From Alphaproteobacteria bacterium (lineage in GTDB: Bacteria > Pseudomonadota > Alphaproteobacteria > JACZXZ01), in assembly GCA_035625915.1 (NCBI GenBank), contig DASPOR010000117.1, positions 3,700 through 67,699 on the forward strand: DNA of 64,000 bases, given 5' to 3'. A program made the translations under genes and the position numbers. The notes beneath the pieces were generated by a model. The model ran no database searches. It had not been told where the DNA came from and saw only the letters and a program-made list of their open reading frames with translations. Positions 3,040 through 37,577 of this stretch are shown piece after piece. Positions within the stretch are counted from its first letter, which is position 1, and each line of letters starts with the position of its first letter.

Positions 3040-3930
3040 CTAGGCCGCGGTCACCAGCGCAAGGGGTCGCTCGGCAAGCGCCACCGATAATGGCAGCGAG
3101 GCGATCAGATCCCCGTCGGCGTGCACCCCCTCGCCGTCGGGTCCGTGAACCGTAAGCTTGGTCGCCGGAAGGATGACGACGTCGCGAAGCCGGTCCAGCC
3201 TGTCGGTTATGAGCGCCCAGGCATAGCGTACGAGGTTCCAGCGCCCCGGCCGCTCGAAGATCGCCACATGAAGTTGCGGGTCCTCGAGGCGCGCGCGTGC
3301 TGCGATCACGAAACGCCCACCATAATAATGTCCCTTGGCGACGACGATCGCAGCAGCGCTGAAGCGCTCGTGGCCGATCTCGACTTGGTAACGTTGCGAG
3401 CGATAGGACATGAGCTGGCCGAGTGCAGAAAGCGCATAGGCGGCTTTGCCGATCAGCCGCTTGAGCTTGAGATCGAGTTCCTCGACGACACGGGCGTCGA
3501 ATCCGACGCCGACCATGAGCGCGAAACGCCGCCCGTTCGCGGTCCCCAAGAAGATGGGACGCGGCGGTCGGAACGCTATCGCCTCGGCGATCGCGTATGC
3601 ATCGCCGTCGAGACCCACTTCGGCCGCCAGCACATTTGCCGTGCCGAGGGGTAGAAGTGCGAGCGGCAGGGCACTCTCGGCCAATCCGTTTATGACCTCG
3701 TTGATCGTACCGTCACCCCCCGCCGCCACGACCAAGTCGTAGCGCCCGGGCTCGGCCACGCGAGCAAGTCGCTCGGCATCGCCCCGCTCGCGCGTCCGCA
3801 CCACCGTGACCGCACACCCGAGTTTTTCGAGAAGTGCGATCACCCGAGCAAATTGCCGGCGCCGGCGCCAACCGGCCGCCGGATTGTAAATGACAAGCAG
3901 GCGGCGCGGCCTCAAAGGATCGATCGGCAA
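3040..3930 (-). CDS. YegS/BmrU-family lipid kinase (DAGK catalytic domain)
   Basis: LLVIYNPAAG...VVAAGGDGTINEV...LGTANV motifs. The ORF-track N-terminus (MCKKLYIKLSL...) is coded by AT-rich DNA and is probably non-coding. A TTG at 3930 preceded by GGACGAGG is a better start (in frame, 296 aa). Confidence 0.7.
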   Translation of the reverse strand: MPIDPLRPRRLLVIYNPAAGWRRRRQFARVIALLEKLGCAVTVVRTRERGDAERLARVAEPGRYDLVVAAGGDGTINEVINGLAESALPLALLPLGTANVLAAEVGLDGDAYAIAEAIAFRPPRPIFLGTANGRRFALMVGVGFDARVVEELDLKLKRLIGKAAYALSALGQLMSYRSQRYQVEIGHERFSAAAIVVAKGHYYGGRFVIAARARLEDPQLHVAIFERPGRWNLVRYAWALITDRLDRLRDVVILPATKLTVHGPDGEGVHADGDLIASLPLSVALAERPLALVTAA

Positions 3931-3939
3931 GTTCGGGGA

Positions 3940-4141
3940 ACCTCGTCCGGACGAAAAGGAAAGATCGATGTCGCTTTTATTAAAGATGATCCTTGAAAAT
4001 TCGTGAAGTGACAGTTTTATGTACAATTTTTTACACATATTGTCATATAGTTTGTATGACTATTATTGTCTTGCTCTATATATTGATGTAGTCTTTCAAA
4101 TCGCGAATCGGTTCTTTTCGGGCACGCTTAGGCATGGGCGG
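3940..4141. promoter_or_regulatory. AT-rich divergent intergenic/promoter region between the lipid kinase and the LpxH-like gene, containing an imperfect palindrome GTCATA-N7-TATGAC
   Basis: About 200 bp of strongly A+T-rich DNA (ttttacacatattgtcatatagtttgtatgactattattg) in an otherwise GC-rich genome, placed between divergently oriented genes. Confidence 0.4.
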
Positions 4142-4915
4142 ATGAGTAGAGCACAGCATTTCCGAACCATCTGGATTTCGGATATCCATCTCGGTACGCG
4201 TGGCTGCAAGGCTGAGTTCCTCCTCGACTTCCTCAAGCATACCGAGTGCGACATGCTCTACCTCGTGGGCGATATCGTCGACGGGTGGCGCCTTAGACGC
4301 TCCTGGTACTGGGCGCAGACTCACAACGACGTGATCCAGAAAATCCTGCGCAAGGCACGCAAGGGAACGAAAGTCATTTACATCCCCGGCAATCACGACG
4401 AGGTTTTGCGCGACTATGTCGGCCTCGTGCTTGGCGGCATCCAAGTCCTGGAAGACCATATTCACGAAACCGCGGACGGCAAGCGGCTCTTGATCCTGCA
4501 CGGCGACGAGTTCGACGGCGTGGTCAAGTACGCAAAGTGGCTCGCCCTACTCGGCGACGGTGCGTACGCCGCATGCCTCACGTTGAATCACTGGTTCAAC
4601 CACGTTCGCCGGAAGCTCGGCTATCCCTATTGGTCGCTCTCCGCTTATCTTAAGAACAAGGTCAAGAACGCGGTCGAATATGTTTCGAACTTCGAGACGG
4701 CGGTGGCGCAGGAGGCGCGGCGTCGCGGCGCCGATGGCGTGGTCTGCGGCCATATCCACAAGGCCGAGATGCGCGTCATCGATGGTGTGCTTTACTGCAA
4801 CGATGGCGACTGGGTCGAAAGCTGCACGGCCCTCGTGGAGCATCCTTCGGGCCAACTCGAAATCATCGATTGGACCCGAGCCAAGGAGCTCGTTCTCTAT
4901 CACGCGGCGGAGTAA
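4142..4915 (+). CDS. calcineurin-like metallophosphoesterase, LpxH (UDP-2,3-diacylglucosamine diphosphatase)-like family
   Basis: WISDIHLG, GNHD and GHIH...DGDW motifs. The start is taken at MSRAQHF. The stop TAA overlaps the ATG of the next gene (TAATG). Confidence 0.7.
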   Translation: MSRAQHFRTIWISDIHLGTRGCKAEFLLDFLKHTECDMLYLVGDIVDGWRLRRSWYWAQTHNDVIQKILRKARKGTKVIYIPGNHDEVLRDYVGLVLGGIQVLEDHIHETADGKRLLILHGDEFDGVVKYAKWLALLGDGAYAACLTLNHWFNHVRRKLGYPYWSLSAYLKNKVKNAVEYVSNFETAVAQEARRRGADGVVCGHIHKAEMRVIDGVLYCNDGDWVESCTALVEHPSGQLEIIDWTRAKELVLYHAAE

Positions 4916-6162: not shown

Positions 6163-8091
6163 GTGCCGATTGAGGCAAATGGCCCTTCCGCGCGGCCCAT
6201 GCTATGGTCGCGCCGTCGGACGCCCCCCGGGGCCGCCGCTGGTTGGTTTTGGGGATACAGATCCTTGGCTAAAAAAGCGAAATTGAAATATCGGCTGGAC
6301 TCGACGACGGTTTCTCTGGTCACGCGTCTTGCGCGCGATCACATCCGGCCACTGGTGCCACGGCTTATCTTCTCGCTCGTCTGCATGGCTATTGCTGCCG
6401 CGATGACGGGTGCTATGGCCAAATTGATGGAGCCGATCCTCGACGAAGTGTTCAAGTCGGCCAACGTCGTCCGGCTCAACCAGATCGCAGTCCTCATTCT
6501 CGTCGTGTTCGCGGTCAAGGGTCTCGCCACGTACGGCCAGGGCGTGACCATGAACTACGTCGGGATGCGCATCATTGCCGACGTACAGCGCAAGATGTTC
6601 GAGCACGTGATCGGCGCCGATCTGGCGTTTTTCCATTCGAATTCGACGGGCACCTTGATTTCGCGCTTCACGAACGACGCGAACATGCTGCGTGGCGCAG
6701 TGTCGAATGCGCTCACCGGCATCGGCAAGGATACGCTTACGCTTGTCTCGCTCATCGGCGTCATGTTCTACCAGGACTGGGTGCTCGCGCTCGTTTCATT
6801 CTTCGCATTCCCGACTGCCATCTGGCCGATCGTCCGGCTGGGTCGACGCATGCGCAAGGTTTCTGCAAACACTCAGGCGGAATACGGCCAATTCACGACG
6901 ATCCTCGAGGAGAGTTTCCAAGGTGCGCGCCACGTAAAAGCATACGGGATGGAGCATTATGAGGCCTCGCGTGCCAATGCACTCGTCGAGCGCCTCTTCC
7001 AACTCGCGCAGAAGGCAGCGCGCACGCGCAATGCCTCCTCGCCGATCATGGAAATGCTGGGCGGCTTTGCGATCGTCGCCGTGATCTTCTACGGCGGCTA
7101 TCAAGTCATCCACAGCGTGCGCACGCCGGGCGCCTTCTTCTCGTTCGTGACGGCACTCCTCCTCGCCTACGAGCCGTTGAAGCGCCTCGCCAACTTGAAC
7201 GCAAGCCTCCAGGAAGGCCTGGCCTCGGCACAGCGTATCTTCACGCTTCTCGACGAGAAGGCCACGATCGTCGATCGTCCGGGTGCTGGCACGCTCAAGG
7301 TCGAAAGGGGGGTCATCCAATTCGAGCGTGTGCGCTTCGGCTATGGGCAAGGCCACACCGCCCTTCACGACCTCACGCTCGAAGTGCCGGCGGGAAAGAC
7401 CGTGGCGCTCGTCGGCCCATCCGGGGCCGGCAAGTCGACCATTCTCAACCTCATTCCGCGCTTCTACGACGTGGGGGCGGGCCGCGTTACCATCGACGGC
7501 GCCGACGTGCGAGATGTGACCCTCACCTCCTTGCGCGCCAATATCGGCCTCGTCTCCCAGGAGATCTCGCTCTTCGACGACACGGTGGTCGCGAACATTG
7601 CCTATGGCAAGCCGGACTCGGGCCAGGCGGAGATCGAGCGGGCGGCGCGCATGGCCGGCGCTCATGACTTCATTGTCCAACTCCCCAAGGGATACGAAAC
7701 ACAGGTCGGCGGACACGGCGCTCGCCTTTCCGGCGGTCAGCGCCAACGCATCGCGATCGCTCGCGCGATGCTCAAGGGAGCGCCCATTCTGCTGCTCGAC
7801 GAGGCGACTTCGGCACTCGATACCGAGACGGAGCGCGCGGTGCAGGCAGCCCTCGCCGAGCTCATGCGGGGGCGCACCACGCTCGTCGTCGCCCATCGCC
7901 TTTCGACCGTGGTCGATGCCGACCTCATTTATGTGATCGACGATGGCCGGGTCATGGAAGCCGGCAATCACGCCGAGCTGCTTGCACGCAAGGGCATCTA
8001 TGCGCGGCTTTATGCCCTCCAGATGGCGGAGGAAGGCACGGTCTCCGAAGTTCCCGCGCCGGATATGCGCGGAGCACGTGCTCGAGCTTGA
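6163..8091 (+). CDS. msbA: ABC transporter permease/ATPase, MsbA-like lipid A flippase
   Basis: Six-TM domain followed by an NBD with Walker A (GPSGAGKST), ABC signature LSGGQRQR and Walker B ILLLDEA. The true start is probably downstream of 6163 (in-frame ATG at 6199 or TTG at 6265). Confidence 0.8.
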   Translation: MPIEANGPSARPMLWSRRRTPPGAAAGWFWGYRSLAKKAKLKYRLDSTTVSLVTRLARDHIRPLVPRLIFSLVCMAIAAAMTGAMAKLMEPILDEVFKSANVVRLNQIAVLILVVFAVKGLATYGQGVTMNYVGMRIIADVQRKMFEHVIGADLAFFHSNSTGTLISRFTNDANMLRGAVSNALTGIGKDTLTLVSLIGVMFYQDWVLALVSFFAFPTAIWPIVRLGRRMRKVSANTQAEYGQFTTILEESFQGARHVKAYGMEHYEASRANALVERLFQLAQKAARTRNASSPIMEMLGGFAIVAVIFYGGYQVIHSVRTPGAFFSFVTALLLAYEPLKRLANLNASLQEGLASAQRIFTLLDEKATIVDRPGAGTLKVERGVIQFERVRFGYGQGHTALHDLTLEVPAGKTVALVGPSGAGKSTILNLIPRFYDVGAGRVTIDGADVRDVTLTSLRANIGLVSQEISLFDDTVVANIAYGKPDSGQAEIERAARMAGAHDFIVQLPKGYETQVGGHGARLSGGQRQRIAIARAMLKGAPILLLDEATSALDTETERAVQAALAELMRGRTTLVVAHRLSTVVDADLIYVIDDGRVMEAGNHAELLARKGIYARLYALQMAEEGTVSEVPAPDMRGARARA

Positions 8092-10157: not shown

Positions 10158-11139
10158 TTTCTGGCACCGTCCGGAGAGTGCGGTCGGCGCCATGCTTGCA
10201 CCGTTTGGCGCGCTCTACGACACGGCTGGGCAGCTCCGTTCCGCTTTGACGAGGGCTCAAAGGCTCCCGCGGAGCGTCATTTGTATAGGCAACCTGACGG
10301 CGGGCGGGGCCGGAAAGACACCAACGGCAATCGCCATTGCGCGTTGGTTTCTCGCGCGCGGCAAAACACCTCACATCCTGACCCGGGGCTATCGCGCGCG
10401 CGCCGCCGGCCCGCTTCGGGTCGATCCCGATCGCCATGGTTTTCGCGACGTTGGCGATGAATCGCTTCTGCTCGCAGCGATCGCTCCGACCTGGATCGGC
10501 GGCAATCGCATTGCAAGCGGGCTCGCGGCATGCGACGCGGGGGCGGATCTTCTCGTCATGGATGACGGTTTGCAGAATCCTACTTTGGCCAAGGACCTTT
10601 CACTGGTCGTCGTCGATGGCGGATACGGTATCGGAAATGGGCGCGTTTTTCCGGCGGGGCCTTTGCGTGAAAGCGTGGCGCACGGCCTGACGCGTGTCGA
10701 CGCCGCCGTGATGATCGGCGCCGACGCAACCGGCCTCTCTCGCGTTTTCGCGAGCCGTCTTCCCATGCTCGAAGCACGACTCGTTCCCAACCCGTCGGCA
10801 AGTGCACTCGCGGGCAAACGCGTGCTGGCCGTCGCCGGAATCGGACGGCCTTCAAAATTCTTCGCAACGCTCGAAGGACTCGGGACCACAGTCGTGAAAC
10901 GCGTCGCCTTCGACGATCATCATGCCTACCATGCCGATGAGATCATGCGGCTCGTCGAGGAGGCACAGGTTTTGGAGGCACAACTCGTAACGACGGAGAA
11001 GGACTTTGTTCGTTTTCCACTGGAAGCGCGACCGATGGCGACGGCGGTGCCGGTCCATATCGAGTGGAGCGATGAGGAGGCGCTCGAGCGCCTCCTTAGC
11101 CCTTTCCTCAGGGCCGATGGCCTGAGGCCCCATGCTTGA
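10132..11139 (+). CDS. lpxK: tetraacyldisaccharide 4'-kinase
   Basis: VICIGNLTAGGAGKTP P-loop and LpxK family layout. The start MSLAVRAPDFW overlaps the waaA 3' end. Confidence 0.85.
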   Translation: MSLAVRAPDFWHRPESAVGAMLAPFGALYDTAGQLRSALTRAQRLPRSVICIGNLTAGGAGKTPTAIAIARWFLARGKTPHILTRGYRARAAGPLRVDPDRHGFRDVGDESLLLAAIAPTWIGGNRIASGLAACDAGADLLVMDDGLQNPTLAKDLSLVVVDGGYGIGNGRVFPAGPLRESVAHGLTRVDAAVMIGADATGLSRVFASRLPMLEARLVPNPSASALAGKRVLAVAGIGRPSKFFATLEGLGTTVVKRVAFDDHHAYHADEIMRLVEEAQVLEAQLVTTEKDFVRFPLEARPMATAVPVHIEWSDEEALERLLSPFLRADGLRPHA

Positions 11140-12037
11140 GTGGCGGACACCTGTCTCGAGAGCGCTCGGTACGGTCGTGCACTGGATCGAGGGCGTCGCC
11201 CTTCTCGCGGCGTTTGCCATGTTCCGCCTCATGCCGCTTGACTGGGCGTCGGCGTTGGGTGGCCATCTTTGCCGAACGTATGGGCGATTTCTGCCAGTAT
11301 CGCGCTATGCCAAAAGGAACCTTCGCGCCGCCTATCCGGAGAAATCGGATGCCGAAATCCGCAAGATCTTCGTCGATATGTGGGAAAACCTCGGCCGCAT
11401 GTTCGGCGAATATCCCCATCTCGGTGGAATACGGCTCTATGAGCCGGGTAGCCGTGTCGAGGTGATCAATCCCGAATATCTCGACCACCTTCGCGATGAC
11501 GGCAAGCCCGGCATCTTTTTCTCGGCACACATTGGCAATTGGGAAATCGCCTCGATGGGGGCTACGCAGCGCGACCTCCCGCTCATACGTATCTACCGTG
11601 CCCCCAACAATCCGCTGGTCGACCGACTCGCTCGCTGGACGCGCCGCAAGATTACAGGTGAACTCTTGCCCAAGGGTGAGGAGGGTGCTCGGCGCACTAT
11701 CGCAATGATGCGCAAGGGCGGGCATCTCGGCATACTCGTCGACCAGAAACTCAATAACGGCATTCCAGTACCCTTCTTCGGCCGGCCGGCGATGACCGCA
11801 CCCTCATTGGCCCAGCTCGCCCTCAAGTTCGATTGCCCCGTCATTCCGGCCCGGGTCGTTCGCTTGAACGGCGCCCATTTTCGCTTGTTCATCTATCCCC
11901 CGCTCGAAATCGTCAAAACCGGCGACCGCGCGCACGACACACTGGCGCTCATGATTCGCGTGAACGCGATCATCGAAGGCTGGGTTCGCGAATACCCCGG
12001 ACAGTGGCTTTGGCTACACCGACGATGGCCGGACTAA
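11132..12037 (+). CDS. lpxL: lipid A biosynthesis lauroyl/late acyltransferase (LpxL/HtrB family)
   Basis: FFSAHIGNWE (HX4D-type acyltransferase motif region) and length of about 300 aa. Overlaps the lpxK stop. Confidence 0.8.
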   Translation: MLEWRTPVSRALGTVVHWIEGVALLAAFAMFRLMPLDWASALGGHLCRTYGRFLPVSRYAKRNLRAAYPEKSDAEIRKIFVDMWENLGRMFGEYPHLGGIRLYEPGSRVEVINPEYLDHLRDDGKPGIFFSAHIGNWEIASMGATQRDLPLIRIYRAPNNPLVDRLARWTRRKITGELLPKGEEGARRTIAMMRKGGHLGILVDQKLNNGIPVPFFGRPAMTAPSLAQLALKFDCPVIPARVVRLNGAHFRLFIYPPLEIVKTGDRAHDTLALMIRVNAIIEGWVREYPGQWLWLHRRWPD

Positions 12038-12218
12038 AAAGGTACCGCCGCCAAGTCGGGTGAACGCTAATGTAAATAAAATTGAAGACGGACTCTGATG
12101 ACCACGCGATCGCATTCCACTATTGTCGAACGAAGGCGGCGCCATTCCGATTATTGCCACCATCGTCACTTCTAGCCAGACTGACAAAGCGGTTGCGCTA
12201 AATACCCCTCACTTTGCT

Positions 12219-12977
12219 TCAAGTCCGCCAGGATTGTATCCGCGCCGCTAACGCCTCGGGGTTCACCCTTGCGCTGATTAGAGCTTCAGAAAATAAGCCG
12301 ACATGACGACTAAAGTCGGATTTCACTTGCTCAAAGAGTGGCGTGGGCTCAGCTCTTTCGCGGCCAAGATAGCTACGACAAAGCCGTACATGGTTCGCTT
12401 CGTCCGCTCGAATTCGACGCAACACGCTGCTAACCACGTCAATCTCGCCGAGCTTCCCTTGCAGGAGGGCGGACAACACGATGCACGTGAGTGAATCTAT
12501 CACCACAATCACGCGGAAACGAGTTGCTGCGTCCGATCCACGATTTTGACGGAAGAATTCTGCGGCATCTGGGGTGCGGTTGGCCAAACGACAATCCGAA
12601 CATACTTCCTCAAGCGCCCGCAGCAGCAACACATGTTGTCGCTCCTCGACGCAAATATCTTCAGCGATACGCCTCGCCGGCAGATCGACGGTTGTATTCT
12701 GCGCGTGCATTCCAAATAAAATAACAGCCGATTCTTCACCGCAAGAGACCATCGGCAGCATCTGTAAGATGAGCGTTTTCTCCTGATGGCTCAGATATGG
12801 ACCGTTAGTTCTAATTTTTTCGATCAACTGATCTACGGTGTCTCGACCCAACGAGGTCATTTGCCGGGACGGCCGAGTCGCCGGCGAACGTTCTTGCATG
12901 TAGCGGGAAAGCAGGCGATCCACGCCGAGGCAGGACTTTCGTGCATTTGGGTCGCGCTCGTCAGCGTCAGACCTCAT
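12219..12977 (-). CDS. ferritin-like diiron-carboxylate protein, function unknown, in a low-GC island
   Basis: Two E...ExxH motifs (GEES...EERQHV; ...GE...DEANHV) typical of four-helix-bundle diiron oxygenases/ferritin-like proteins. The surrounding DNA is visibly less GC-rich than the rest of the window. The N-terminus is uncertain. Confidence 0.45.
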   Translation of the reverse strand: MRSDADERDPNARKSCLGVDRLLSRYMQERSPATRPSRQMTSLGRDTVDQLIEKIRTNGPYLSHQEKTLILQMLPMVSCGEESAVILFGMHAQNTTVDLPARRIAEDICVEERQHVLLLRALEEVCSDCRLANRTPDAAEFFRQNRGSDAATRFRVIVVIDSLTCIVLSALLQGKLGEIDVVSSVLRRIRADEANHVRLCRSYLGRERAEPTPLFEQVKSDFSRHVGLFSEALISARVNPEALAARIQSWRT

Positions 12978-13241
12978 TTTGTGACCGATCCTAACTTACG
13001 AGGGTTGGCCGAACCATCGCACTGAATGTGTTTGCAACGGTACGCCAATTTCGAAATCCCTAGCGACAACATCGTGATTGCCCTCACTGTGACGTTGGGG
13101 GCGCTGTGGATCGCGCGAAGATATGCGGGCAAGTTGGCCTGGGTGGAATCGTCTGATCCATCACATGGGTTCCCTGCGTATACCTAGCAGATCAAGGGTC
13201 TGACCGCAGCACATTCTTACGAATTTGACCCGGAGGGACCA

Positions 13242-13406
13242 GTGTGGCGAATCCGAAATTCGCCACATCTGGGCGCTGGACCGTGAGCGAATTTCGGATT
13301 CAAAGCCACGCTCGTAATATGTCGTATCTAGTGTGGTATTCGGATTTGAAGTTCCCAAGCGCGGATGCCACCAAAATATGAGAAACTTCAAATCCACCAC
13401 ACTAGG
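13242..13406 (+). repeat. MITE-like two-hairpin interspersed repeat, copy 1
   Basis: agtgtggcgaatccgaaattcgccac...gagcgaatttcggattcaaagccac / ctagtgtggtattcggatttgaagttcc...gagaaacttcaaatccaccacactag. Shares its whole length with copies at 27236, 36960 and 42909. Confidence 0.8.
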
Positions 13407-13617
13407 TCGCGCACCAAACGGAAGGTGAGCGAAATTACGCTTCCTCTTGCCTAAGCTACAAGCTCGTCACCCCAGGGACGAAAATCGCGGTAAGGCTGGA
13501 TCTCCACGAATGAGCGCTCGGTTTCTTGCGCTTATTGCGATCCATGAGTCGTCAGCGCGTGTCGTCGGGTGGAGAACCTGGCTTCGCCGGCAACGAATGC
13601 AGACCGGCCACGCGTCG

Positions 13618-14475
13618 TCAGTCGCCCCCTACGGTCGCCGGTTTTGACTCTGCGTCTACCGGCAAGGCCGGCATGGGCGGGACGAGAAGCTGAGGGTCGA
13701 GACGCACCGTCTGCCAATTCATCCCCCAGTGAAGATGCGGGCCCGTAACGCGCCCCGTTCGACCCATGCGCGCGACCTCCTGGCCCTGGCGCACGTGCTC
13801 TCCCACCTTCACCTCGATCGCCGAGAGATGGAGGAAGATCGAACTCAGGCCGAGGCCGTGATCGATGATGAGCGTGCCGCCTGTCAGGTAAAGGTCGGAC
13901 TCGGCCAGGGTGATGACGCCGTCGGCGGGCGCGCTGAGGGGTGTGCCGACCGGCCCTGCGATGTCGACGCCCATATGGGGCGCGCGCGGCTCCCCATTCA
14001 AGATGCGTTGACTGCCGTAGACGCCGCTAATCGGCCCTTGCACCGGCCAGATGAATCCCGTCTCGAAGAGAGGCTCGCGGATATCGGTGGAGCGCGCCTT
14101 GTTGAGGAGCGCTTGGTCGTCCTGAATGCGCTTCAATATCTCGGGCGGCGGCGTCACCATTGCCGGTGGCAGGCCGTTGATGCGCTGGATGTCGTAGCGA
14201 CGTTGTACGACGGCGAGCACGCGCTCCTCGGTCTCGCCATCCGGATGGCGCACTGTGAGGATCGATTCGGGCTTCGCGTCGCGGTCGAATCCGAAGACAA
14301 AATGCCCATCGTCCGCGACCTTGACCGTTTTGCCGTCGAGCGTCACATCCGCCTTGGGTTCGGTGACCCCGAAGACGAGCCCACCCTGCGTCACTTTCCC
14401 TTCGATGCTTAGCGTGCCAGCAATTGCCGGCGATGCCGCGAGCGAACAAGCGATGACGATCACACGTATATTCAC
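13618..14475 (-). CDS. M23 family metallopeptidase with signal peptide
   Basis: N-terminal signal peptide. HMGVDIAGPVGTP and DHG...HLH...GPHLHW M23 motifs. Confidence 0.8.
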   Translation of the reverse strand: MNIRVIVIACSLAASPAIAGTLSIEGKVTQGGLVFGVTEPKADVTLDGKTVKVADDGHFVFGFDRDAKPESILTVRHPDGETEERVLAVVQRRYDIQRINGLPPAMVTPPPEILKRIQDDQALLNKARSTDIREPLFETGFIWPVQGPISGVYGSQRILNGEPRAPHMGVDIAGPVGTPLSAPADGVITLAESDLYLTGGTLIIDHGLGLSSIFLHLSAIEVKVGEHVRQGQEVARMGRTGRVTGPHLHWGMNWQTVRLDPQLLVPPMPALPVDAESKPATVGGD

Positions 14476-27221: not shown

Positions 27222-27235
27222 AACGATCCTCCGCG

Positions 27236-27401
27236 CTCGTGTGGTGGATTTGAAGTTCCTGTCATTCTGGTGGTACGCGCGTTTAGGAACTTCAAATCCG
27301 AATACCACACTCGATACAACATATTACGGGTGTGGCTTTGAATCCGAAATTCGCTCACGGTCCCGCACCTGATGTGGCGAATTTCGCATTCGTCACACTA
27401 G
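27236..27401 (-). repeat. MITE-like two-hairpin interspersed repeat, copy 2 (inverted orientation)
   Basis: Reverse-complement match to copies 1, 3 and 4 over its full length. Its terminal CTAG contains the pgi stop codon. The other end lies 15 bp from the mutL ATG. Confidence 0.8.
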
Positions 27402-34430: not shown

Positions 34431-34667
34431 GGTGATCGATTTCCGACCGCCACAGCGCTTAAGCCGGGTGAAAATTTCCTCCAGGCCTGTGACCCAGGTC
34501 ACTGAGGGCAGGCCGCGGCCCGTTTAGGGTTAAGGTTAGATTGTAGCCCCGATCCTTCCTCCTTCATTCGGGTCCTTCAATCCGGGAACCTCACTCCTCC
34601 TGCAAGACGCCTAGGGCCGGGAATTTTTCCCGGCCCTACTTTATTCGGCTTTCGCCCGAAATGATGG

Positions 34668-36899
34668 CTACTTCGTGAGCGCCACGTAAACCCCGTCCCA
34701 GTCCGCCGGCGGAGGGGCCTTCTCGAAATCCGCAAGGCGTTCCTCATAGACCCCATAGAACGCCTGAAGCATTTCCGGCGCTTCGGCACGGCTCGCTTCG
34801 AGCGCTTGGCGTGCCCGCGCCCAATCCTTGGCGCGATAAGCCGCGATGAGGGCGTCGTGGTCCGCCTTGAGCGCTGAAAAGGTCGGATTGCCCGACATCG
34901 TCTCATCGCCCAGGAGCGCGAATATGCGGACCGGCTGGGTCTTGCCCTTGACACGGATGAGGTCGAGTTCCAATGCCGCGAGTGCGGACGCCGAAGCCGC
35001 GGTCGTCTCGCCGATCACGATGTCGACGCCGTATGTCTTCGACTGACCCTCGAGCCTCGAGGCGAGGTTCACGTCGTCGCCTAGGACCGAATAATCGAAC
35101 CGCTGATCCGATCCCATGTTGCCCACACAGCAGACGCCGGTATTGAGGCCGATGCCGACGCGCACCTCGTGAAAGGCCTTGCCCTCGGCTTGCGCCTGGT
35201 GGCGCCACTCGTCGTTGAGGCGGACGAGGTCGGCACGCATGCTGAGTGCGGCGCGGCAAGCGCTGAGCGCATGTGCCGGATCGTCGAGTGGGGCGTTCCA
35301 GAACGCCATGATCGCGTCGCCCATGTATTTATCGATCGTCCCGCCGGAGGCGAGGATGAGATCGGTCATGGGTGTGAGGAAGCTGTTGATGAAGCGCGTC
35401 AGGCCGTGAGCGTCGAAGCCCTCGGCGATCGTGGTAAAGCCGCGAATATCGCAGAACATGAGCGTCATCTCGCGCATTTCGCCGCCGAGCTTAAGTCTTT
35501 CAGGGTGGTTTGCGAGTTGCGTGACGATGGCAGGCGCCAAATATCGACTGAACGCGGTTCGCACGCGTCGGCGCTCCGCTTCGGTGCGCAGATAGAGAAT
35601 GGCGGACGACGAAAGATAAACGAGAAGCACGACGAGCGAGGGAGTCACGGGATCGAGCAGGAGCTTGTACTGGCTATAGGCGTAGACCGAGACGCCGACC
35701 GCCGCTACCAGCGCCCCCGCACCGACGAGTGCAGCCCATTGTGCGCCGACCTTGGGCAGCCGCGCGGTGAGGAAGAGGCCGAGGCCTAGCATGTAGAGGA
35801 GTTCGAGCCCCGGCGCCCAGTCGGGCCGCTTGAGGTGATCGTCGAGCAGGATCTGTTCGACGAGCTGCGCATGCACTTCGACGCCGGGTGCGACCGGATC
35901 GAGCGGGGTCGAGCGAAGGTCGAGCAGACCGGCAGCACTTGCGCCGATGAAGACGATGCTGTCCTTGATCAGACTGCTGTCGAAGCCTGGCTCGAAGACC
36001 TTCCAAGCCGGCACGAAACGCTGCGCCACGTGGCCGGTATAGTGCACCCAGAGCCGGCCGTTCCCATCGGTTGGCACGATCAGGTCGCCGATCTTGATCG
36101 AATTGATGCCGGTGTGCGCGCCGAACGCCGTTTCCTGATTCGCACCCGAGGATTTGACGATATCCGTCTTAGCCCCTTGCGCCACCCGCAATGCCTCCGC
36201 GGCGAGGGTGGGATAGATCCGGGTCCCCATCGCAAGAAGAAGCGGCACGCGGCGCGTGATGCCGTCCAACTCGACAAGATCGGTGAAGGTACCGTTGCCG
36301 GTTGCGGCTGCCTCGAGGATCGGCAAATTCGTTACCGCACCCGGAAATCGGAACACGAAGGGATGGGGGTCGTCTCCGGCGAAGGCGAAGCTTGCCTTGG
36401 CGGCGGGCACGCGGGTACCGGTGCGCTGGTTGAGGGCAAAGCCCGTGGCAACGCGGGCGCGCTTCATCGCTTCGGCAAGCACTTCGTCGTGGTCGGGTAA
36501 GCTCTTGAGCCGCAATATCGCTGGATCGTCAGCCGGCAAGGCGCTCAGGTCCGCGAGCAGGCGCGTTGGCGAGGTACGGTCCGGCTCGGCGAAGACGATA
36601 TCGAACACGATCGCCGCAGCACCTAACTCATTGAGGCGATCCACGAGCTTGGCGACGAGCGTGCGCGGCCACGGCCATTGGCCGAGGCGCGAGAGGGATT
36701 CGTCGTCGAGGTCGACGATGCGCACGGGTGCTGGCTCATAGGCGCGCGGCTCCATGCGCAAATAGCTGTCGAAGACGAGGAATCGGAGCTGGGTGAGGAT
36801 TGCAGGTTCGCTATACCAGCCGGCTAAAGCGACCGCCATGATCGCGAGCGGCAAGGTCCAGTGAAGCTTCCGCTTGAGGTATCCCCACGCCCAATGCAT
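34668..36899 (-). CDS. CHASE2 sensor domain-containing class III adenylate/guanylate cyclase
   Basis: N-terminal TM + CHASE2 (QWPWPR motif), several TM helices, and a C-terminal cyclase domain (FCDIRGFTTIAEG...GDAIMAFW...GIGLNTG...GDDVNLASRLE). Confidence 0.8.
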   Translation of the reverse strand: MHWAWGYLKRKLHWTLPLAIMAVALAGWYSEPAILTQLRFLVFDSYLRMEPRAYEPAPVRIVDLDDESLSRLGQWPWPRTLVAKLVDRLNELGAAAIVFDIVFAEPDRTSPTRLLADLSALPADDPAILRLKSLPDHDEVLAEAMKRARVATGFALNQRTGTRVPAAKASFAFAGDDPHPFVFRFPGAVTNLPILEAAATGNGTFTDLVELDGITRRVPLLLAMGTRIYPTLAAEALRVAQGAKTDIVKSSGANQETAFGAHTGINSIKIGDLIVPTDGNGRLWVHYTGHVAQRFVPAWKVFEPGFDSSLIKDSIVFIGASAAGLLDLRSTPLDPVAPGVEVHAQLVEQILLDDHLKRPDWAPGLELLYMLGLGLFLTARLPKVGAQWAALVGAGALVAAVGVSVYAYSQYKLLLDPVTPSLVVLLVYLSSSAILYLRTEAERRRVRTAFSRYLAPAIVTQLANHPERLKLGGEMREMTLMFCDIRGFTTIAEGFDAHGLTRFINSFLTPMTDLILASGGTIDKYMGDAIMAFWNAPLDDPAHALSACRAALSMRADLVRLNDEWRHQAQAEGKAFHEVRVGIGLNTGVCCVGNMGSDQRFDYSVLGDDVNLASRLEGQSKTYGVDIVIGETTAASASALAALELDLIRVKGKTQPVRIFALLGDETMSGNPTFSALKADHDALIAAYRAKDWARARQALEASRAEAPEMLQAFYGVYEERLADFEKAPPPADWDGVYVALTK

Positions 36900-36959
36900 T
36901 ACACAATGCTAATATTAAGTGGGGCTTTGCGCCATAGACCGAGTGCGACGGCAGCATGG

Positions 36960-37125
36960 CTAGTGTGGCGAATCCGAAATTCGCCACATCTTGGGTGCGG
37001 GAGTGAGCGAACTTCGGATTCAAAGCCACACTAGCAATATTTTGTATCTAGTGCGGTATTCGGATTTGAAGTTCCTAAACGCGCATACCACCAAAATGAC
37101 AGGAACTTCAAATCCACCACACTAG
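36960..37125 (+). repeat. MITE-like two-hairpin interspersed repeat, copy 3
   Basis: ctagtgtggcgaatccgaaattcgccacatc...gcgaacttcggattcaaagccacactag + ctagtgcggtattcggatttgaagttcc...ggaacttcaaatccaccacactag. The terminal CTAG contains the mutT stop codon. Confidence 0.85.
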
Positions 37126-37577
37126 AGCAGTTCCTGAAGCACGGGGATCAACGGAGCGTCCGCAGGCGGCATGGGGTAATCGCCGAGGCGCTCCGGGCGT
37201 ACCCATTTGAGGTTTTGCCCCTCCTTCCCTCTCGCTGTCCCGTTCCATACCCGGCAGACATAAAGCGGCATGAGAAGGTGAAACCGTTCGTAGCGGTAAG
37301 ACGCGAAGGTGAGCGGGGCAAGGCAGCTTTCGGAGGTATCGATGCCGAGTTCTTCCTCGAGTTCGCGCACGAGGGCGGCCTCCGGGGCCTCGTCGTCCTT
37401 GGGTTTGCCGCCGGGGAATTCCCAGAGCCCGGCCATCGGCTTGCCGGCTGGACGTTGGGCGAGCAAAACCCGCCCGTCGACGTCGACGAGAGCCACCGCC
37501 ACCACAAGGACGACGGGCAACGGATCGCCCGCTTCCTGGCCTCCACGATGCGCCAGTACCTCCTCGCAGCCCTTCAT
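37122..37577 (-). CDS. mutT: 8-oxo-dGTP diphosphatase (NUDIX hydrolase)
   Basis: Nudix box GKPKDDEAPEAALVRELEEELGI. Conserved position downstream of argJ. Confidence 0.8.
   Translation of the reverse strand: MKGCEEVLAHRGGQEAGDPLPVVLVVAVALVDVDGRVLLAQRPAGKPMAGLWEFPGGKPKDDEAPEAALVRELEEELGIDTSESCLAPLTFASYRYERFHLLMPLYVCRVWNGTARGKEGQNLKWVRPERLGDYPMPPADAPLIPVLQELL

Follow-up and report, generated by a model that had tools for sequence, protein, structure and literature searches.

Comparison with described ferritin-like oxidases

Ferritin-like oxidases that are paired with acyl-processing enzymes repeatedly show unusual chemistry, as in alkane formation by the cyanobacterial aldehyde-deformylating oxygenase (ADO), whose fatty-acyl-derived substrate is supplied by a partner enzyme. 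R2lox, a further protein with this fold, binds a long-chain fatty acid at its Mn/Fe site. In this study, we analyzed a 64-kb stretch (64,000 nt, hereafter the window) of contig DASPOR010000117.1 from an alphaproteobacterium, in which a gene for a 252-amino-acid (aa) ferritin-like protein lies beside the lipid A late-acyltransferase gene lpxL; residue numbers below are those of this protein. We consider it likely that the gene arrived by horizontal transfer, belongs to a family of ferritin-like dimetal oxidases that lacks a curated model, and was left as an orphan in a permissive insertion spot.

Among described proteins, ADO (PDB 4rc5, 4rc6, and 4kvq) gave the best template-modeling (TM) scores of the fold search (0.54–0.55 on the query and 0.61–0.62 on the target, with a root-mean-square deviation (rmsd) of 4.4–5.2 Å) and is similarly a soluble, stand-alone protein of ~220–250 aa with E/ExxH/acid/ExxH ligands. 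However, it shares 10–12% sequence identity with the window protein at a Foldseek E-value of 0.27, and its match to the family profile falls short of significance (E 0.16–1.7). The window family has Asp161 on helix 3 rather than Glu as well as two invariant ligand-adjacent cysteines, and its partner enzyme is KAS-III, whereas that of ADO is an acyl-acyl carrier protein (ACP) reductase. To our knowledge, an Asp on helix 3, where Glu is usual, together with two cysteines next to ligands is unusual for the ferritin-like superfamily.

R2lox (PDB 4hr0 and 3ee4/4ac8) and the R2 subunit of class I ribonucleotide reductase (RNR) share the same dimetal fold (Foldseek E 0.087–0.15, probability 0.99–1.0), and the family profile matched this group in PDB (6qrz, 9e-4). 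These proteins differ in size (~285–340 aa, with extra helices) and superpose with TM scores of 0.42–0.51 and an rmsd of 5–12 Å; the Pfam family Ribonuc_red_sm was matched by one of 80 family members. Symerythrin/rubrerythrin and the de novo designed Due Ferri provided the best sequence-profile matches in PDB and have in common a repeated helix-ExxH motif, but the match is limited to one helix pair, and the window family has no rubredoxin domain and occurs in a biosynthetic rather than stress-related context. DUF455 (PF04305) and Ferritin_2 (PF13668) belong to the same clan and were weakly matched by six and 12 of 80 members, respectively. Overall, no characterized family is close to that of the window protein.

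Predicted fold and metal site

The preliminary description of this sequence had proposed a four-helix-bundle, ferritin-like diiron fold for the protein; a fold of this kind, with a dimetal-carboxylate site, is supported by invariant ligands, profile-to-PDB matches, an AlphaFold2 (AF2) model, and Foldseek matches. As it had also reported, a single protein of 252 aa with the motifs EERQHV and DEANHV is encoded. The open reading frame (ORF) occupies 12219–12977 on the minus strand, and a third motif, CGEESAV, can be added. Based on sequence and model, the assignment to the ferritin-like dimetal-carboxylate superfamily is solid.

Searches with the single sequence were less informative than those with the family. 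In Pfam, the window protein scored 18.3 bits against Ferritin_2, under the cut-off of 24.7; it did not match DUF455, nor Rubrerythrin (PF02915) at E ≤ 10, and the Cys4 domain is absent from the sequence. NCBIfam gave 23.1 bits for EncB_fam NF058679 (cut-off 90) and 12.7 bits for TIGR04535 (cut-off 125). A PDB search with the protein alone returned no meaningful match, a nitric oxide synthase (NOS) heme domain at E 0.3 being spurious, and defense-system and phage libraries gave zero matches. An encapsulin cargo protein (EncB/EncFtn) was considered and rejected because of the sub-cut-off scores, the length of 252 aa compared with ~100–120 aa, and the lack of a shell gene nearby.

The AF2 model, computed on an 83-sequence alignment, reached a mean predicted local distance difference test (pLDDT) of 84.8 and a predicted TM (pTM) score of 0.83. 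It comprises four long helices (64–93, 99–125, 150–173, and 180–204) with one or more ligands in the middle of each, and has no membrane segment. The putative ligands are E81 (or E82), E112, H115, D161, E193, and H196. They follow the superfamily pattern acid/ExxH/acid/ExxH with one element per helix, the spacing being 31 residues from E81 to E112 and 32 residues from D161 to E193. Invariant C79 shortly precedes the E81 ligand, invariant C165 lies one helical turn past the D161 ligand, and the window protein keeps the conserved N-terminal C16. All top 50 Foldseek matches in PDB were ferritin-like proteins (10–19% identity), among them 3ez0, R2lox, PaaA/PaaC, ADO (best TM 0.54/0.62), RNR R2, and acyl-ACP desaturases. 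The gene product would be a cytoplasmic four-helix-bundle dimetal-carboxylate protein of the R2/ADO type, its metal identity and O2 chemistry being inferred.

An uncurated family with a conserved gene cassette

A word-indexed search over 5.8 billion clusters found just two relatives of the window protein, at 34–37% identity. The family that this search had missed was revealed by an exhaustive HMMER search with a three-sequence profile, which identified 348 representatives with an E-value of 1e-3 or lower, 95 of them at 1e-30 or lower. In a second indexed search with an 80-sequence profile, nearly all members were recorded as "hypothetical protein" without a Pfam domain, and a few bore a precomputed PF04305 label. 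Identity to the window protein does not exceed 38% even in its closest homologues, which are found in unrelated contexts. Twelve positions are invariant across 83 sequences: C79, G80, E81, E82, A84, F88, E112, H115, D161, C165, E193, and H196.

Dimetal four-helix proteins were the only PDB matches of the family profile, namely Due Ferri (1.1e-7), symerythrin (3e-6), R2lox/R2, DesA2, and ADO. In the Pfam search of 80 individual members, the families matched were all of the Ferritin clan: Rubrerythrin was matched by 26 (best match 1.8e-6, which is weak), Ferritin_2 by 12, and DUF455 by six, and COQ7, AurF, FA_desaturase_2, and Phenol_Hydrox were also matched. This CGEESA-motif family has no Pfam or NCBIfam model. 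It comprises several hundred sequence clusters and combines an unusual invariant site with the lack of a curated model and of any literature found.

Contigs with called genes were available for eleven loci of family members (L004–L012, L174, and L175); a twelfth (L176) had fragmentary gene calls and was uninformative. A KAS-III/FabH-like gene lies directly downstream of the ferritin-like gene in all eleven, often with overlapping stop and start codons. Genes for an ABC ATPase and/or an ABC-2 permease come next in most of the contigs that are long enough, and about half of the eleven contain, upstream or downstream, a gene for a secreted or lipoprotein YHS-domain protein of ~160 aa. For the latter, a match at 5e-44 was obtained with NF041384 ("YHS domain-containing (seleno)protein"). 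FabH and PqsD are similar to the KAS-III partner (best 2.7e-24), which has apparent Cys/His/Asn triad motifs (ACTGF, PHQANG, and GNTGSA). A scan of metagenome contigs added 80 family loci, 57 of which include a YHS gene. Of the 60 that could be evaluated, 48 have KAS-III as the next gene downstream (65 of 78 in a count based on hidden Markov models, HMMs). Literature searches for this cassette found no description.

Because ~80% of the members are translationally coupled to a KAS-III/FabH-like enzyme, the substrate of the family is probably of the acyl or polyketide type. Its usual role may be the O2-dependent modification of a KAS-III product that is subsequently exported; in the cassette setting, this would be hydroxylation, desaturation, or oxidative C–C cleavage of the acyl or β-ketoacyl product before export. 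As a more speculative and rather unlikely extension, the undescribed four-to-five-gene cassette, seen mostly in soil metagenomes, might make and export an oxidized acyl or polyketide-like small molecule, with the window gene as its tip and the solo copies as oxidases with new substrates. The uncharacterized cassette is of more interest than the window gene, and is a reasonable target in the search for a new secreted metabolite.

Full cassettes (YHS, ferritin-like, KAS-III, and ABC-2) often have neighbors related to metal homeostasis. In L011 (1817–6880 and 11698–15425), the cassette lies beside a CusAB-type resistance-nodulation-division (RND) efflux system, YtkA, and bufferin BufA1/MbnB; in L006 (12319–16717), beside a TonB-dependent receptor, PepSY_TM, and NicO; and in L175 (6292–7281), beside a cation diffusion facilitator (CDF) transporter. 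An extracytoplasmic function (ECF) sigma/NrsF pair is also among the neighbors in these loci. These neighbors hint that the cassette product or the YHS protein may be related to metals. On the speculative reading above, the product could be a metal-binding compound because a periplasmic YHS partner and neighbors for copper, nickel, zinc, and TonB-dependent transport recur.

Two alphaproteobacterial loci (L009, 3647–10832; L174, 1674–8882) carry a reduced cassette of ferritin-like, KAS-III, and ABC-2 permease genes, with neither a YHS nor an ABC ATPase gene. Both directly follow a row of two-component, HPr-kinase, RapZ, EIIA-Man, and HPr genes, a second conserved insertion context.

A solitary and divergent member

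None of the cassette accompanies the window gene. A tblastn search of the 64 kb with 15 partner proteins matched only MsbA, through its generic ABC ATPase domain; genes for KAS-III, an ABC-2 permease, or a YHS protein were not found, nor was any trace of a pseudogene beside the ORF. Against a family HMM from which it had been left out, the window protein scored 106 bits (HMM positions 23–224, residues 53–249, E ~1e-34 in a single-sequence search). Because a full-domain match to an HMM built without it was obtained, the ORF is not a chance one. This is the lowest family score among the 83 aligned sequences, the other members scoring 209–286 bits, values that are inflated since those sequences are part of the HMM training alignment. 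In a neighbor-joining tree, the window protein forms a long singleton branch. It retains all 12 invariant residues and 30 of the 48 positions conserved at ≥80%.

The window copy is the most divergent member seen and would have been cut off from all its partners. Since every invariant metal-site residue is kept, it is probably still metal-binding and O2-reactive, and most likely persists as an orphan whose current use is uncertain. The window gene itself is of modest interest, as a case in nature of an enzyme of this kind that has become detached from its pathway.

Solo copies are present in 13 of 86 family loci and have arisen several times, several of them with a GC content at third codon positions (GC3, where GC denotes guanine plus cytosine) below that of most neighbors. 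A solo divergent member is also carried by the Piscinibacter gummiphilus plasmid NZ_CP136337.1 (L093, 201 kb) at 34507–35286; it scores 131 bits, has Cys165 replaced by Thr, and is flanked by an integrase/DUF1173 pair on one side and an alpha/beta hydrolase gene on the other, with helicase genes nearby.

Probable insertion at the lpxL/M23 junction

The ferritin-like gene is contained in a tract between lpxL and a gene for an M23 peptidase. The features of this tract and its borders are as follows.

11132–12037, plus strand: lipid A late-acyltransferase gene (LpxL/HtrB family), supported by Pfam Lip_A_acyltrans on an identical metagenome contig
12038–12218, no strand: 181-bp spacer, GC 0.503, bounded by the stop codons of lpxL and of the convergent ferritin-like ORF
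12219–12977, minus strand: ferritin-like dimetal-carboxylate protein, 252 aa, ATG start, supported by the ORF, the family HMM, and the AF2 model
12978–13231, minus strand: region upstream of the ferritin-like ORF, GC 0.531
13232–13406, no strand: double-hairpin repeat copy, GC 0.50, supported by alignment with other copies in the window
13407–13617, no strand: residual spacer up to the M23 stop, in which GC climbs back to 0.588
13618–14475, minus strand: M23 peptidase gene, supported by Pfam Peptidase_M23 and synteny

The composition of the tract stands out from the rest of the window. With a GC content of 0.536 compared with 0.622 for the window, 12038–13241 is the minimum among all 1204-nt sliding intervals of the 64 kb (mean 0.622, standard deviation 0.024, z approximately −3.5). 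The preliminary description had noted low GC in this interval, but the bounds that it gave are too narrow. Low GC is confirmed within 12038–13241, but the tract continues past 13241 through the 175-nt repeat (GC 0.50) to ~13500. The entire lpxL-to-M23 insert spans 12038–13617 (1580 bp, GC 0.538), and this whole spacer is the natural unit. The ferritin-like ORF has a GC content of 0.543, within the lowest 1.7% of 759-nt intervals, and a GC3 of 0.56, compared with 0.63–0.80 for other plausible genes of the window.

A Shine–Dalgarno-like AGGA is present at 12989–12992 (minus-strand reading), 11 nt ahead of the ATG of the ferritin-like gene, and a terminator scan found one weak terminator-like site, inside the ORF. 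No KAS-III gene remnant (tblastn) or Rfam match was detected in the spacer 12038–12218, and no Rfam family was found within 11800–13800. On the other side of the tract, lpxL is the final gene of the row msbA-DUF374-waaA-lpxK-lpxL, whose earlier labels are confirmed by Pfam matches on the identical metagenome contig (ABC_membrane plus ABC_tran, MsbA-like; DUF374; Glycos_transf_N, WaaA; LpxK; and Lip_A_acyltrans).

LpxL orthologues were sought among 185,579 species representatives, and the closest came from metagenome-assembled genomes (MAGs) of Rhodospirillales, at 50–60% identity. These relatives have conserved the gene order msbA-DUF374-waaA-lpxK-lpxL, followed by M23-xseA in convergent orientation and by purD. 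The gap between lpxL and the M23 gene measures 15–57 bp in ten loci (L014, L017, L020, L021, L022, L024, L025, L031, L042, and L087), compared with 1580 bp here, and none of the 80 lpxL loci of relatives contains a homologue of the ferritin-like protein.

Some other relatives carry different cargo at the same place, with labels that were read off translated ORFs without a family search. Apparent RES/Xre-type toxin-antitoxin pairs occupy the lpxL/M23 junction in L016 (6890–8061) and L023 (6893–7369), a low-GC orphan gene is located there in L019 (1110–1736; GC 0.465, compared with 0.637 for the locus), L030 has a 361-aa gene (6982–8067), and three Thalassospira loci (L027–L029) have a MarR-like and a gamma-glutamyltransferase-like gene. 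The junction is thus a recurrent variable spot, with the 1.58 kb of the window as one such acquisition. The tract is probably an insertion into this intergenic spot consisting of one foreign gene and a copy of a genome-resident hairpin repeat. Horizontal acquisition, which had been proposed from composition, is supported by the low GC and GC3. Stronger support comes from the relatives, in which the site is empty, with lpxL almost adjoining the M23 gene, or holds other cargo.

Competing explanations

Several observations weigh against the reading of the gene as an acquired, orphaned dimetal oxidase. Regarding acquisition, no integrase or other mobility gene among the ORFs and no tRNA was found in the island. 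The nearest genomes reach only 50–60% LpxL identity, so that the insertion is undatable and neither a DNA-level empty site nor a target duplication is demonstrable. Regarding function, a scan for sigma-70 consensus promoters upstream of the ORF returned zero sites; 18 of the 48 highly conserved positions are changed, including P127 and A69 (99% conserved elsewhere) as well as H153, which may mean loss of the original function; and the three metagenome copies are 100% identical across the island, leaving no polymorphism for a test of selection. The Foldseek E-values are weak (≥0.08), so oxygenase-like and rubrerythrin-like placements are not separated. Finally, the view covers 64 kb, and cassette partners could exist elsewhere in the genome.

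These points bear most directly on the possibility, which we regard as appreciable though doubtful, that the gene is a decaying passenger left over from a broken cassette and without function, open only since the transfer was recent and heading for loss. The lowest family score (106 vs. 209–286 bits), the long branch with its altered conserved positions, the absence of all cassette partners from the 64 kb, a GC3 that has not been ameliorated, and the missing promoter match would all be expected of such a relic. However, the ORF has kept its full length, uninterrupted by frameshifts or stops over the whole HMM, all 12 invariant residues are retained (including the six ligands and both cysteines) as is Cys16, a Shine–Dalgarno-like AGGA and a confident AF2 fold are present, and the difference in scores is exaggerated by the membership of the other sequences in the training alignment. 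An origin by vertical inheritance, with low GC resulting from weak expression and an AT-rich intergenic setting, is scarcely probable. In its favor, searches for mobility genes, a tRNA, and direct repeats at the flanks were negative, and the adjacent genome-native hairpin repeat is also low in GC; but the orthologous loci of relatives lack the gene, all other plausible genes of the 64 kb have a higher GC3, and its closest homologues are distant and in unrelated contexts.

Two further alternatives concern what the protein does. That it is a stand-alone rubrerythrin- or symerythrin-like protein for peroxide detoxification or iron handling, and not an oxygenase, is improbable in our judgment. The weak Rubrerythrin matches in 26 of 80 members, symerythrin as the best natural PDB sequence match, the sub-threshold matches to EncB and encapsulated ferritins, and the recurrence of solo copies would fit such a protein, but these matches are below curated cut-offs and span a single helix pair, the protein lacks a rubredoxin domain and its gene an encapsulin neighbor, size and fold are closer to the ~220–300-aa R2/ADO/PaaC-type enzymes, and the tight coupling, by gene overlap, with KAS-III and an exporter in ~80% of loci suggests biosynthesis. 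The preliminary description had instead raised, from position, the hypothesis of an acquired oxygenase that modifies lipids or acyl chains. If its targets were the acyl chains of lipid A, such an O2-dependent enzyme would be a desaturase or a diiron analogue of LpxO-type hydroxylases. The gene adjoins that of a late acyltransferase, its best structural neighbors include the fatty-acyl-binding ADO and R2lox and acyl-ACP desaturase, and the family is usually tied to an acyl-condensing enzyme. Nevertheless, this suggestion is not supported and is very improbable. The ferritin-like gene lies outside the lpxL operon because it is convergent to lpxL, an orientation that had gone unmentioned; the AF2 model has no membrane segment; and no pairing with lpxL was seen in ~170 homologue or lpxL loci, since the homologue was absent from all 80 lpxL loci of relatives and none of the 80 metagenome family loci contained lpxL, lpxK, or waaA ("msbA" matches there were to the generic ABC ATPase domain only). 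Moreover, the position at the lpxL/M23 junction carries no functional signal because relatives have cargo of other kinds there, in some cases an apparent toxin-antitoxin pair. The place beside lipid A genes would rather be one where DNA inserts harmlessly, and adjacency to these genes at a permissive insertion spot gives no reason to propose new lipid A chemistry. A looser link to acyl substrates appears to survive at the family level through the coupling to KAS-III, a partner that the window lacks.

Dispersed repeat and additional observations

The repeat within the insert is one copy of an intergenic element of ~165–175 nt that is dispersed in the window; it forms two long hairpins and has terminal inverted repeats (CTAGTGTGG...CCACACTAG) and a GC content of ~0.50. 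The copies are listed below.

13232–13406: repeat copy in the lpxL/M23 insert
27233–27401: inverted copy
36952–37126: repeat copy
42902–43076: repeat copy
47258–47331: partial copy

The predicted fold has an energy of −75.7 kcal/mol (z −7.2), and no Rfam match to the repeat was found. It looks like an element of the miniature inverted-repeat transposable element (MITE) or repetitive extragenic palindromic (REP) type, and is a separate genome-resident element that by chance lies inside the same insert as the ferritin-like gene.

Among the lpxL loci, two public records carry a row of alphaproteobacterial type (DUF374-waaA-lpxK-lpxL) in unexpected company: L055 (CAVCSV010000018.1) is filed as Limosilactobacillus gorillae and L044 (JANQQD010000355.1) as an Anaerolineae MAG. 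Both are probably contamination or binning errors.

A further compositional low was observed in the window at ~3926–4685. Its GC content of 0.516 is the minimum among 759-nt intervals of the window, and it spans the junction of the ORFs 3040–4038 (minus strand) and 4019–4915 (plus strand).

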